Of a stretch of 4,550 nucleotides of DNA, positions 1 through 4,550 are shown piece by piece. Origin of the DNA: a virus (lineage: Duplodnaviria > Heunggongvirae > Uroviricota > Caudoviricetes); the IMG/VR virus record IMGVR_UViG_2547132270_000007; one strand, written 5' to 3'. Made by a program: the position numbers and the translations under genes. A model generated the notes under the pieces. The model did no database searches and was not told the DNA's origin. It worked only from the letters and a program-made list of their open reading frames with translations. Position 1 is the first letter of the stretch. Every line of letters starts with the position of its first letter.

Positions 1-265
1 GCATCACAAAATTCACTTTAAAAAGGGCGGACATCAGCCGAACTTCAAGAAAAAAACTGATGCCGCCAGGACTACACACAGCAATGTCGTTATTCACAAC
101 CGGATGCGCACTCCCACCATTTAAATTTAACAGACAAGACCGACTCTTTATGGATATCGGAAATGCGCCTTCGTGTTGTGCCCGGTTTTATTTCACCACC
201 TCCGGGCTTTGGTGGCCTCGGCTATACCCCTACAGCGAGAATATTGAATTAATCCAAATAATGGA

Positions 266-1367: not shown

Positions 1368-1643
1368 ATGACATTAGATGAATATTTGAAAAAAAATCGT
1401 GTACGACAGTCTTGTTTGGCCGCGCTGGCTGGTTGTTCGCAATCAATGATTAGCCTCGTTGCTACTGGACGTAGTCAGTTAAGCCCTGAAAAGGTATTGC
1501 GTATCGCAGAGGCTACGAATTTCGAGGTTACACCTCATGAACTCCGGCCTGATATCTACCCGAATCCGACCGATGGTTTACCTGTTGGATGTAAGGCTAA
1601 CACACAAAATGCACAGGAGTTGATTCATGAAAATCAGGCATGA
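1368..1643 (+). CDS. ydaS: Cro-like HTH regulator, YdaS family, 91 aa
   Basis: ORF track 1341-1643. Preferred start is ATG 1368 with SD AAGGTGA (1356-1362) 5 nt upstream; the TTG at 1341 would fall inside the predicted promoter. HTH region QSCLAALAGCSQSMISLVATGRSQLS. First rightward gene after the divergent promoter; overlaps the next gene by 17 nt. Confidence 0.85.
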   Translation: MTLDEYLKKNRVRQSCLAALAGCSQSMISLVATGRSQLSPEKVLRIAEATNFEVTPHELRPDIYPNPTDGLPVGCKANTQNAQELIHENQA

Positions 1644-2482: not shown

Positions 2483-2702
2483 TACGTTTTTCACTTGCCT
2501 GGTATAGCAATCTCGCCAGCGAATCATAGCTACTGGGGCTCAGGAGAGAATCCCGTGAGTGATTTGTAAGAATCAGGTGGAAGCGGGTGAGAACTATAGC
2601 CCTGCATGTTACCAGGTTAACCATGTCGTGGTCGTGCTGGTTAATTTTGTACACAGTGCGCATGTGATTTTTAATTTTTTGGCAAACAGCCATTAAAGAC
2701 AT
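2247..2702 (-). CDS. Hypothetical protein, 151 aa, His/Cys-rich N-terminus, no family recognised; antisense to the early operon
   Basis: Near-consensus SD AAGGAGG (+2709-2715) exactly 6 nt before the ATG (+2700-2702). Perfect TATAAT on the minus strand (+2742-2747) upstream. Fewer rare codons than the overlapping + ORF. Its first 73 codons lie in a region with no plus-strand ORF. Perfect 8-bp hairpin (2197-2220) lies 27 nt past its stop. Confidence 0.5.
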   Translation of the reverse strand: MSLMAVCQKIKNHMRTVYKINQHDHDMVNLVTCRAIVLTRFHLILTNHSRDSLLSPSSYDSLARLLYQASEKRITDPLSVSPVLALHILEDALYAPRQECDYQFLEAEKSMREWFVEYRERQQKLSSEYSELPQLRWSDLPNELFALTPEN

Positions 2703-2765
2703 GTCGAACCTCCTTTGGTTCTGTTGATTGGGGAATCACAGATTATATCCGGAGGAAGGTTCGAC
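2703..2765. promoter_or_regulatory. Inverted-repeat control region between the antisense ORF and the replication initiator
   Basis: 9-bp perfect inverted repeat GTCGAACCT (2703-2711) and AGGTTCGAC (2757-2765), 45 nt apart. It brackets the minus-strand TATAAT (2742-2747); the left arm is the SD-to-start spacer of the minus ORF and the right arm adjoins a plus-strand GGAGG (2751-2755). Confidence 0.35.
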
Positions 2766-2781
2766 ACCAGATGAGGCAATT

Positions 2782-3906
2782 ATGGTTAAGGCTAAAAACA
2801 TGCCAAATCCCATGCCAAAAACTAAGGCAAACAATGAGCCTTATCGCAAGGTAAAAATAACGATATGGGATGATCCCAAATTTAGGGCGTTATCTCCTCT
2901 GCCTCCAAGTGGACAGAGTTTGTTTATTTATCTGCTGACCAGTCCATTTACCGGGATTATTCCCGGGTTGTTTAAAGCCGGGCGGGCAGCAATGGCTGAA
3001 GAGTTGGGGTGGGATATTGAAGCCTTTGACTTAGCCTTAGGCGAAGCCATGAAGCTTGGCATGGTGAAAGCAGATATCAAAGCCAGAGTTTTTTGGCTCC
3101 CGAATGCTGCGAAACACAATCCGCCAAACTCGATAAATGTCATTAAATCTTGGGCAAAGGCATTCGCTTTAATTCCTGATTGCCCTCTCAAATGGGAGGC
3201 CAGGGAATCGCTGAGAGCGGCGTCCTACGGGGTTTCTGAGGCTTTGGGGATGGCATTCGATAAGGCAATCCCTTTGCCTGAGGATAAGCCTAAGGATAAG
3301 GCTAACGCTTTGTCATGCGGTATCCAGATAACAGATAACAGATATATAAACCCCACACATAACGCGCGCGTGCGCGAGAGTGCTCTGACCAGTGAGTCGA
3401 ATGATTTGCCGTTACAGGCAGCGGAACCTGATTACCTGGAAGGCCTGAGCGAACCCATCGGGAAATTTCCGATGACCGATGGCTGGCATCCGTCGCCGGA
3501 TTTCCGACGGCGGGCTGCACTGTGGGGAGTGGCTCTGCCGGAGCCGGAATTTACACCTGCTGAACTTGCCGCCTTCCGGGACTACTGGGCAGCGGAGGGG
3601 AAAGTTTTCACGCAGGTTCAGTGGGAGCAGAAATTCGCCCGTCACGTAAATCACGTCAGGGCGCAGGTTAAACCAGTCAGCAAGGGGGTGAACCATGCAG
3701 CAGCACCAGGTGGCACCGCATCACGGGCAGTTCAGGAAATTCGGGCAGCACGTGAGCAGTGGGAACGTGAAAACGGATTTATCCGCGACGGAAACGGCGT
3801 GGAAGCTGTGGGAACTCATGGGGGAGGTTTATTCGAACCGCTGGACCCAGAAGAACGGGGCCGCACCTTCGAAGCTCTGGATTGCACAGATTGGCGCGAT
3901 GACTGA
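2782..3906 (+). CDS. Phage replication initiation protein with DnaT-like C-terminal domain, about 374 aa
   Basis: ORF track 2728-3906 begins at a TTG with no SD. Preferred start is in-frame ATG 2782 with GAGG 5 nt upstream (ATG 2800 is an alternative). N-terminal region WDDPKFRALS...LFIYLLT looks like a phage replisome-organiser DNA-binding domain; a low-complexity linker follows; then a DnaT-like motif (WHPSPDF...FRDYWAAEGKVFTQVQWEQKFARHV). Sits immediately upstream of a lambda-P-like gene. Confidence 0.85.
   Translation: MVKAKNMPNPMPKTKANNEPYRKVKITIWDDPKFRALSPLPPSGQSLFIYLLTSPFTGIIPGLFKAGRAAMAEELGWDIEAFDLALGEAMKLGMVKADIKARVFWLPNAAKHNPPNSINVIKSWAKAFALIPDCPLKWEARESLRAASYGVSEALGMAFDKAIPLPEDKPKDKANALSCGIQITDNRYINPTHNARVRESALTSESNDLPLQAAEPDYLEGLSEPIGKFPMTDGWHPSPDFRRRAALWGVALPEPEFTPAELAAFRDYWAAEGKVFTQVQWEQKFARHVNHVRAQVKPVSKGVNHAAAPGGTASRAVQEIRAAREQWERENGFIRDGNGVEAVGTHGGGLFEPLDPEERGRTFEALDCTDWRDD
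3259..3380. repeat. Origin-like repeat cluster inside the initiator gene linker (candidate ori)
   Basis: GATAAGGC (3259-3266); tandem GGATAAGCCTAA / GGATAAGGCTAA (3282-3305); tandem CAGATAA CAGATAA CAGATAT (3325-3345); AT-rich TATATAAA; then an alternating CG tract CGCGCGCGTGCGCG (3363-3376). The order (iterons, AT-rich, GC-rich) parallels lambda ori, which lies within the O gene. Confidence 0.4.
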
Positions 3907-4360
3907 GCAGCAAATCCGGCAGGTCTGCCGCCAGTGCATGGACCGTTGCAGGGCAGGTGAAACATGGCCTCCGGACCTGGCTGAGTTTGTGGCGCTGATT
4001 TCGGAGAGCGGGGCAAATCCATTTGGTCTGACGGTGGATAACGTGATGGAGGAATATCGCCGCTGGCGCAATGAGTCCTGGCGATACGACGGGAGTGATA
4101 AATACCCGTGGTCTCAGCCCGTGCTGTATCACATTTGCCTCGAGATGCGGGCAAAAGGGATTGAGCGTCAGATGACCGAAGGGGAGTTAAAACGACTTGC
4201 AGAACGGCAACTGGCGAAATGGGCAAAGCTTGTTGGTGACGGCTTCAGCGTTCCGCCCGTCCGGCGGCAACTGGTAGCACCAAAACGCCCGTCGGGGCCA
4301 ACTCCAATTGAGTTGCTGAAACAGGAATATGAACGCCGGAAAGCGGCTGGGTTTGTTTGA
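3695..4360 (+). CDS. Lambda P-family replication protein (DnaB helicase loader), up to 221 aa
   Basis: Recalled lambda P sequence aligns by eye over the C-terminal two thirds (ours [10 protein letters not shown]...YPWSQ...[11 protein letters not shown]...PPVRRQL vs lambda PSPGQFVAW...YPWKS...LTDAELRRKAA...EPVKQL). ATG 3695 has a strong SD (AAGGGGGTG, 6-nt spacing) and gives near-lambda-P length. Alternative in-frame starts are ATG 3818 and ATG 3899; the weak similarity seen upstream of residue 69 argues against 3899. Confidence 0.85.
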
Positions 4361-4395
4361 GTTGAGAAGTAATTTTTACCGGGAGGAAATTTTAA

Positions 4396-4550
4396 TGGAA
4401 ACTGTTTTTGATGCACTGAAAGCAATGGGAAAAGCCACATCCATAGAACTTGCTGCGCGACTTGATATCAGTCGTGAAGAAGTGCTGAACGAACTATGGG
4501 AACTGAAAAAGGCTGGTTTCGTTGATAAAAGCGCGTACACCTGGCGTGTG
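4396..4550 (+). CDS. Small winged-helix DNA-binding protein (PapI/FaeA-like fold suspected), 5' partial, runs off the window
   Basis: ATG 4396 with GGGAGG (4381-4386) upstream; open to the window end. Translation is [52 protein letters not shown], a pattern typical of small winged-helix regulators. Too short and truncated for the ORF track. Confidence 0.55.

Follow-up and report, generated by a model that had tools for sequence, protein, structure and literature searches.

Short repeats within the initiator gene

The stretch of DNA analysed here (4,550 nucleotides (nt), IMG/VR record IMGVR_UViG_2547132270_000007; hereafter the window) comes from a Rac/Qin-like lambdoid prophage of Escherichia coli, of which it forms the region for immunity and replication. 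Its replication initiator gene, whose stop codon overlaps the start of a translationally coupled gene for a lambda P-like helicase loader, carries arrays of short repeats that we regard as a probable phage replication origin. The repeats fall between the parts of the gene that encode an N-terminal domain (N-domain) and a C-terminal domain (C-domain), with further copies within the coding sequence of the former. The features of this module, in base pairs (bp) and amino acids (aa), are:

2782-3906, + strand: initiator gene, 374 aa, from the list of open reading frames (ORFs)
2787-2843: cluster C (tentative), covering the first codons at the 5′ end of the gene with five 12-bp-phased units (centres 2791, 2803, 2815, 2827, 2839; exact TAAGGCTAA at 2787-2795)
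2872-3270, + strand: coding sequence of the winged helix-turn-helix (HTH) N-domain, aa ~31-163 (a1-b1-a2-a3-b2-b3, then three helices)
3019-3050: cluster A, three 12-bp-phased cores in the codons of helix a3, aa 80-90 (EAFDLALGEAM): AAGCCTT 3020-3026, TAGCCTT 3032-3038, AAGCCAT 3044-3050
3238-3316: cluster B, putative initiator-binding iterons, seven 12-bp-phased units that include both 12-mers (centres 3241, 3253, 3265, 3277, 3289, 3301, 3313; cores in order GAGGCTT, ATGGCAT, AAGGCAA, TTGCCTG, AAGCCTA, AAGGCTA, TTGTCAT)
3281-3292 and 3293-3304: 12-mers GGATAAGCCTAA and GGATAAGGCTAA
3320-3350: least stable duplex of the initiator gene (nearest-neighbour profile in 20-, 30- and 40-bp windows)
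3322-3362: mosaic junction and start of the shared C-terminal module (C-module), AAACCCCACACATAAC, protein NPTH... (NPTH at 3349)
3325-3345, + strand: heptamer array CAGATAA, CAGATAA, CAGATAT, putative unwinding element
3363-3376: alternating CG tract CGCGCGCGTGCGCG, part of the C-module and not an N-domain element
3466-3666, + strand: DnaT-like single-stranded-DNA-binding domain, aa 229-295, Pfam PF17948
3899-4360, + strand: lambda P-like helicase-loader gene (Pfam, PHROG, RefSeq)

The first-pass annotation, made from the letters of the sequence, had proposed origin-like GATAA iterons from 3259 onward, and the motifs that it named are all present: two adjacent 12-mers (3281-3304), three tandem 7-mers (3325-3345, the third being CAGATAT), an AT-rich stretch and an alternating CG tract (3363-3376). 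Its six GATAA/GATAT cores in about 90 bp (3259-3345) correspond to + strand GATAW at 3259, 3283, 3295, 3327, 3334 and 3341, a cluster equalled in 0 of 2000 dinucleotide-preserving shuffles (shuffle maximum 4). Tandem Repeats Finder reports a period of 12 with 2.5 copies at 3276-3305 and, for the heptamers, a period of 7 with 2.9 copies and 100% matches, and GATAAGSC occurs 4 times against 0.34 expected, a count reached in 0/200 shuffles. While the repeats are real, their unit and extent had to be revised: the core conserved across relatives is AAGSCT(T/A) with a 12-bp period, on which enterobacteria have elaborated with GATAA; the array extends upstream to 3238, and 3019-3050 holds a further cluster.

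Allowing up to one mismatch, the enterobacterial 9-mer TAAGSCTAA is found 9 times against 1.65 expected, 7 of the 9 being located within 2787-3305. Phased units like those of cluster C were seen in 6/6 enterobacterial relatives; they are absent in Xanthomonadales-type relatives because the N-terminal tail is missing there. A lone exact copy of TAAGGCTAA is also found at 1592-1600 (+), at the 3′ end of the cro-like gene and ~1.2 kb upstream of the arrays, where it may have arisen by chance.

The duplex at 3320-3350 is comparable in stability to the intergenic promoter regions of the window, and A+T content reaches 66% over 3320-3360. The beginning of the equivalent hexamer array overlaps with the gene's least stable 30-bp window in 42 of 71 relatives. 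No repeat cluster elsewhere in the window is fit to serve as an origin.

Other types of element were considered for the same segment. Folded as single-stranded DNA, the CG tract yields a small hairpin (z -1.8) with a terminator-like hairpin score on the minus strand; the tract is missing from relatives with other C-domains. An internal promoter or terminator was rejected, given that the scan shows no excess over shuffles and returns the weak hairpin at the CG tract alone. A hairpin or cruciform formed by alternating AAGGCTT and AAGCCTT was likewise discarded, since orientation strings vary freely among relatives and uniform arrays are common. Rfam returned no structured RNA in 2700-3900 at E <=1.

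The initiator protein and its loader

We favour a start of the initiator at the ATG at 2782 because of cross-genus conservation upstream and a GAGG ribosome-binding site 5 nt before it. RefSeq/PGAP annotation in many genomes begins at an internal ATG (Met71 here, 2992), giving a protein of ~305 aa whose winged helix lacks helix a1 and strand b1.

A full-length AlphaFold2 model shows confident domains at aa ~31-165 and ~222-297, with a predicted local distance difference test score (pLDDT) of 31-47 between them at aa 171-214. The codons of cluster B and of the heptamers (3238-3345) correspond to aa 153-188 and span the last part of the N-domain and the first part of this predicted disordered linker, in agreement with the earlier placement of the repeats in the linker. 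In the N-domain model (pLDDT 83) the elements follow one another as in a canonical winged helix (a1-b1-a2-a3-b2-b3), and DNA binding by this domain is plausible from the predicted fold. Its basic residues are located in the N-terminal arm and the wing, and DNA contacts may be made through these in place of a3.

The N-terminal half matches the PHROG replication-initiator families phrog_1408 and phrog_1701. Pfam finds the DnaT domain only, leaving aa 1-228 with no match, so there is no homology to lambda O. A search of PDB sequences with the N-domain profile gave spurious matches to designed helical proteins, and no significant sequence relation to solved Rep proteins emerged. The N-domain family is nonetheless large, with 4464 representatives at 50% identity (E <=1e-3), and is without a Pfam model. 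Its members carry at least 14 classes of C-terminal region unlinked by BLAST, the DnaT domain occurring in just 5 of the 35 sampled.

In the present protein the C-domain is clearly DnaT-like: PF17948 matches with 65.2 bits (cut-off 25, E 4.4e-18), phmmer aligns it to the solved DnaT C-terminal domains 4ou6, 4ou7 and 6aep (E ~1e-20), and its pLDDT exceeds 90. The initiator is not an equivalog of DnaT, since the full-length NCBIfam model NF002770 scores 99.4 bits against a cut-off of 201, with positions 80-167 alone matched.

The loader (153 aa) belongs to the P family, with 56.6 bits to PF06992 (cut-off 26, E 3.4e-15); it aligns to positions 50-161 of 162, the N-terminal third of the model being missing. 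It also matches phrog_109, 'P-like helicase loader' (E 2e-52), and is named 'replication protein P' in RefSeq. A longer in-frame ORF begins at 3695, within the initiator gene.

The arrays accompany the N-domain

Relatives in the genome collection come from Salmonella, Citrobacter, Serratia, Pluralibacter, Dryocola (with a non-DnaT C-domain) and a Nitrospirota metagenome-assembled genome (44% identity). All have units of 12-bp period directly after the N-domain (such as GATAAGGCTAAG, CCTTTGCCTAAG, or CGTAAAGCCTAT five times) and then a CAGNAA(N) tandem array, and the isolated Citrobacter phage Chris1 shows the same arrangement. A profile search of viral contigs gave 286 stretches confirmed to encode a relative; in 72 distinct genes of 50-69% G+C the linker reads ...GAAAGCCTTCCGGAAAGCCTTCC...AAGGCTATGCCTAAT(CAGGAA)n with n = 3-11. 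Where these contigs have (CAGGAR)3-11, enterobacterial relatives have CAGAAAGCAGTAAACAGTAAACAGATC.

In the 72 genes, 144 of 196 successive AAGSCT spacings are exactly 12 bp and 37 of 196 are 24 bp. The density of AAGSCT is 21.8 per kb in the linker versus 0.84 per kb outside. The centre base of the core is G in 136 cases and C in 132. In many Xanthomonadales-type relatives GAAGCTTCCTCGCTTCGCTCGGA (protein ASSLRSES) comes directly after (CAGGAA)n; it holds AAGCTT, the core minus its centre base.

A comparison of repeats among related phages had been suggested along with the initial proposal, and its outcome is that the array pair is kept in every N-domain relative examined, whatever the C-domain, with a variable copy number. 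Besides the range of n, two E. coli strains illustrate this variation. STEC308 has one additional 12-mer, in frame (4 aa). MB06101 has a fourth CAGATAA heptamer, which causes a frameshift and splits the gene (locus 1249-1430), annotated in RefSeq as a 'hypothetical protein' ORF plus a DnaT-like pseudogene; from its sequence this looks like inactivation of a prophage replication gene by replication slippage. In B4103-1 and MB06101 (both E. coli) the CG tract is 6 bp shorter.

The right-hand boundary of the repeats is a module junction. Megablast homology begins right after the repeats, at 3322 for Rac-SA53, 3342 for TL-2011b and 3344 for the PPompW/Stx2a phages, whose initiators have three mutually unrelated N-domains and share the C-module from NPTH onward. 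Each carries its own distinct short repeats just upstream of the AAACCCCACACATA(A/G)CG joint: ACACCCAAA-type units six times in PPompW, TGTTCAAACA/TGTTTGAACA plus GATACA repeats in Rac-SA53, and GTAACGC units in TL-2011b. The joint DNA itself is nearly identical across the four N-domain types. The PPompW/Stx2a phage initiator (3303-3499 of its locus) has an HTH N-domain and also two tandem copies of GGAACCCAAA before the joint; the PPompW-type repeats are a candidate origin, on sequence grounds, for that group, Stx2a-converting phages included.

Judged from these comparisons, the repeats go with the winged-helix N-domain and not with the DnaT-like C-domain, because the same C-module joined to three other N-domains bears different repeats, and because the N-domain retains them when fused to at least 14 other C-terminal classes. 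The description of the initiator as of a DnaT-domain type holds in that PF17948 is present, but the repeats have to be assigned to the other half of the protein.

Codon-level constraint on the repeats

AAGGCTT and AAGCCTT are reverse complements of one another, are used almost equally (136 vs 132) and follow no fixed order. The alternation of Lys-Ala and Lys-Pro in the encoded linker can therefore be read as one pseudo-palindromic site being flipped. The core also changes reading frame: relatives have a second cluster 200-400 nt upstream, in the folded domain, where the helix EAFDKAFGEAF is encoded by GAAGCCTTCGACAAAGCCTTCGGGGAAGCCTTC with the core in reading frame +1. The same core is thus used in two reading frames and both orientations.

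An entropy profile was computed from 53 viral-contig genes with <90% nt identity. Synonymous-codon entropy is 0 in cluster A at Glu GAA, Ala GCC, Lys AAA, Ala GCC, Glu GAA, Ala GCC and Gln CAA, and near 0 in the linker at Lys AAG, Pro CCT, Ala GCT, Asn AAT and Gln CAG, with other columns at ~1-2 bits. Lys is written AAA in cluster A and AAG in cluster B, matching what the core demands in each frame, and the Asn that precedes the array is always AAT in G+C-rich genomes. GCT, CCT and GAA are over-used in the linker of genomes with 60-68% G+C (Fisher p 1e-61, 1e-77 and 1e-19, respectively), a test that is partly circular given that the region was defined by the motif, whereas the entropy profile is not circular.

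The second array points in the same direction. Its period is 6 in viral contigs and 7 in enterobacteria (CAGAAAG CAGTAAA CAGTAAA; here CAGATAA CAGATAA CAGATAT), and with a period of 7 instead of 6 the DNA repeat is retained while the QEQE protein repeat is lost. Comparison of six enterobacterial genes shows identical codons in 7 of the 9 degenerate columns of cluster A with an invariant aa, versus 9 of 72 elsewhere (Fisher p 9e-5); for cluster C the constraint is only suggestive (3 of 7 columns frozen against the same background of 9/72). Lineage-specific core variants are common to clusters A and B, such as AAGCCTA, found in both at the Nitrospirota locus. That a cis element acting at the level of DNA exists here is, in our view, highly probable.

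A putative origin of replication

We consider it reasonably likely that 3238-3350, probably together with 3019-3050, is the phage replication origin, bound by the N-domain and placed inside the initiator gene. The argument is that the repeats exceed chance and adjoin the least stable duplex of the gene, that the arrays co-vary with the N-domain across module swaps and relatives, that the cores are constrained at the DNA level, and that the N-domain is predicted to fold as a winged HTH. The original suggestion of a lambda-like origin within the initiator gene is in this respect strongly supported by comparative and codon-level evidence.

By analogy with lambda and with iteron replicons, several N-domains would occupy the phased cores, together making up a nucleoprotein complex similar to the lambda O-some. 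This complex would strain and open the neighbouring heptamer/AT-rich tract, the DnaT-like domain would capture the exposed single strand, and the C-terminal region would recruit the P-like protein with the host DnaB helicase, whereupon replication could start.

The module appears to be active, as it is carried by the isolated phage Chris1 and by a 47.7-kb circle. The latter is the circular record CP100067.1 (p727A3-47K, E. coli EC727A3), which has the initiator and the P module; its typing as shown lists no plasmid replicon, and it is probably a circular or excised phage genome. A plasmid search for a minimal replicon with the module returned this phage-sized circle and a distant Ralstonia match, nothing else.

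Several observations weigh against an origin bound by the N-domain. AAGSCTT (<=1 mismatch) is weakly enriched over the window as a whole, with 24 copies against 16 expected and 8/200 shuffles reaching 24, so that clustering, phasing and comparative data have to carry the case. With ~25-30 bp the AT-rich tract is short, and in 29 of the 71 relatives the least stable window of the gene is elsewhere. Helix a3 (EAFDLALGEAM) is acidic and hydrophobic, atypical of a recognition helix, and DnaD-type winged helices, a type to which the phrog_1701 match leads, act in oligomerisation. The compared sequences are phylogenetically related, and the p-values given above overstate their independence. Finally, the literature searched gives no binding, unwinding or origin experiment for the element or for family members.

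A bolder proposal, which is possible though we would not call it likely, is that a large initiator family without a Pfam model has a self-contained, dual-coded origin with a distinct iteron architecture, and not a copy of that of lambda. The 12-bp-phased AAGSCTT sites would lie in both a3-helix codons and linker codons, and the translated (CAGGAA)n or (CAGATAA)n microsatellite would be the unwinding element. Since normal DNA has 10.5 bp per turn, sites spaced by 12 bp are not all on one face, and we speculate that an ordered initiator filament on them would wrap or untwist the double helix and could in this way drive the tract open. Slippage of a single repeat would, in the heptamer form, turn the initiator gene off.

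Alternative explanations

The phased cores might instead be operators through which the initiator, or another factor, autoregulates the initiator-loader operon, with replication starting elsewhere. The further copies over the first codons (TAAGGCTAA at 2787-2795) would suit such a role, DNA-level conservation fits any function as a double-stranded binding site, and plasmid iterons commonly serve both replication and autoregulation. We nevertheless find it unlikely as the whole account: the array is everywhere coupled to a tandem, melting-prone tract, it is located where lambdoid origins sit, at the junction of N- and C-modules, and the window holds no alternative origin-like repeat cluster. 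An operator role is, moreover, compatible with an origin role.

We give little credence to the idea that AAACCCCACACATAAC and the CG tract (3347-3376), perhaps with the CAGATA repeats, are mainly a recombination joint for lambdoid swaps of N- and C-modules and no working part of an origin. Homology with the three other initiator types does start at 3322-3349, and the joint DNA is near-identical across four N-domain types and missing in relatives with other C-domains. This explains the right-hand edge only and leaves the 12-bp arrays unaccounted for; it is also compatible with the origin, lambdoid O genes being likewise mosaic at theirs.

The repeats could in principle amount to a protein linker of low complexity that is prone to slippage, (K-P/A-x-x)n and (QE)n, and be devoid of function as DNA. 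The predicted disorder of the segment, the copy number differences among strains and lineages and the recurrence of the protein motifs K[PA]xx and QEQE are what such a linker would give. Codon analysis largely refutes this, making it very improbable: in cluster A synonymous sites are frozen within a confidently folded helix, Lys changes from AAA (cluster A) to AAG (cluster B) with the frame of the DNA core, the Ala/Pro alternation is the flip of a palindromic DNA site, enterobacterial heptamers keep the DNA repeat and lose the QE repeat, and Asn before the array is always AAT in G+C-rich genomes.

A host DnaA-dependent site, built from GGTATCCAG and TTATCC motifs on two strands and hinted at in the first-pass annotation by the DnaA-box resemblance of GTATCCAGA (3320-3328), has next to no likelihood and was rejected: TTATCCTCA (minus strand, 3279-3287) is 1 mismatch from a DnaA box and GTATCCAGA is 2 mismatches from TTATCCACA, but matches with <=2 mismatches number 20 against 12.4 expected (5/200 shuffles reach 20), none of them exact, which we take as chance level, and the GGATAA part is absent from non-enterobacterial relatives that retain the array.

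Relation to known replication systems

That lambda has its origin inside the initiator gene is textbook knowledge, so the conceptual surprise is moderate. Iterons measure ~19 bp in lambda and roughly 19-22 bp in plasmids. The present element shares with lambda a mid-gene position in the initiator, flanked by the parts that encode the N- and C-halves; a site array with an easily melted tract next to it towards the loader; a P-like gene immediately downstream; and a gene that is mosaic at the same point. It differs in that the initiator is no O homologue and has a DnaT-like single-stranded-DNA-binding domain as its C-half, in units of 12-bp period with a 7-bp pseudo-palindromic core, in an unwinding tract that is a translated tandem hexamer or heptamer, and in a second site cluster inside the N-domain coding sequence. 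For comparison, the lambda origin in the middle of gene O has four dyad-symmetric iterons (PMC7466680). By this analogy the element may work like lambda ori/O, outside the O family.

The Stx phages 933W and P27 have a six-iteron origin, the added iterons giving O 13 extra aa (PMC7466680). An in-frame change in iteron copy is tolerated there as in STEC308 (4 aa); initiator family and iteron sequence differ, and a heptamer change here can be out of frame and inactivating (MB06101). As for Rac, PMC3945230 and the reference list of PMC11014345 indicate that its origin is active and that oriJ plasmids exist. The order of repressor, YdaS-like, YdaT-like, initiator and loader genes is the same, and YdaU of Rac-SA53 has the same C-module and joint, whereas its N-domain is unrelated and its repeats are different.

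Set beside the winged-helix Rep proteins of iteron plasmids (RepA/RepE/pi type) and the SPP1 G38P/DnaD-like replisome organisers, the present system has one winged-helix domain, not two, and a site period of 12 bp, much shorter than that of plasmid iterons. With E. coli DnaT the initiator shares a homologous three-helix single-stranded-DNA-binding C-domain, which is here fused to an unrelated N-domain and placed in a context of phage initiation versus replication restart.

Neither the N-domain nor the repeat type (including literal CAGGAACAGGAACAGGAA) is described in the literature searched, in which older subscription literature was covered incompletely, and the Stx 'Eru' paper does not treat origins. 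Most likely, on the sequence evidence, an undescribed initiator family and a repeat type that is new are combined here in a layout like that of lambda.

If confirmed, the element would supply thousands of prophages of Proteobacteria and beyond with an origin and with a rule for its binding sites, namely AAGSCTT every 12 bp and after that a CAGGAA-type array; the initiators of these prophages are at present without a family name, and their start is often truncated in annotations. It would be a natural case of double constraint, the same bases serving as a folded helix and a site array in two frames and both orientations, and one on which methods for finding overlapping functional elements could usefully be tried. 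It further predicts prophages with common replication specificity, hence incompatibility or cross-activation, and the heptamer frameshift would explain one route of prophage decay.

Genomic setting and other features of the window

Upstream of the initiator gene the immunity region comprises:

799-1263, leftward: repressor with HTH_3 domain
1368-1643: YdaS-like cro analogue
1627-2049: YdaT-like gene

At least 80% of the window is found in one piece in nine E. coli genomes, the best full-length matches having 96-97% identity. Some part of it is matched in ~2600 genomes, phage matches being limited to the C-module and loader half; the N-module is rare in E. coli (37 of 5426 genomes). The phage record vB_Apl-pPE4 (PP818812.1) has 97% identity over 2700-4400. 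Its recorded host is Actinobacillus pleuropneumoniae and its gene content is Rac-like; from the sequence, the attribution to Actinobacillus looks doubtful.

Between the YdaT-like gene and the initiator gene lies an antisense pair of ORFs, 2069-2482 (+, 137 aa) and 2247-2702 (-, 151 aa), with a 236-nt overlap. The plus-strand ORF matches phrog_37051 and the minus-strand ORF has an AAGGAGG ribosome-binding site. We read this region as a variable insert because other E. coli prophages with the same initiator have different small genes there. A perfect 10-nt inverted repeat (2702-2711 / 2757-2766) flanks the stretch between the insert and the initiator gene.

On the minus strand, a strong intrinsic terminator (758-779), AAACCGCCATCCCTGGCGGTTT followed by T8, is found directly 3′ of the leftward repressor gene. 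Positions 25-80 (-), where the leftward operon ends, hold a candidate DicF-like antisense small RNA, in a location that corresponds to that of dicF in Qin; the match covers the full Rfam model RF00039 with 39.1 bits, below the gathering score of 48 (E 3.9e-6).

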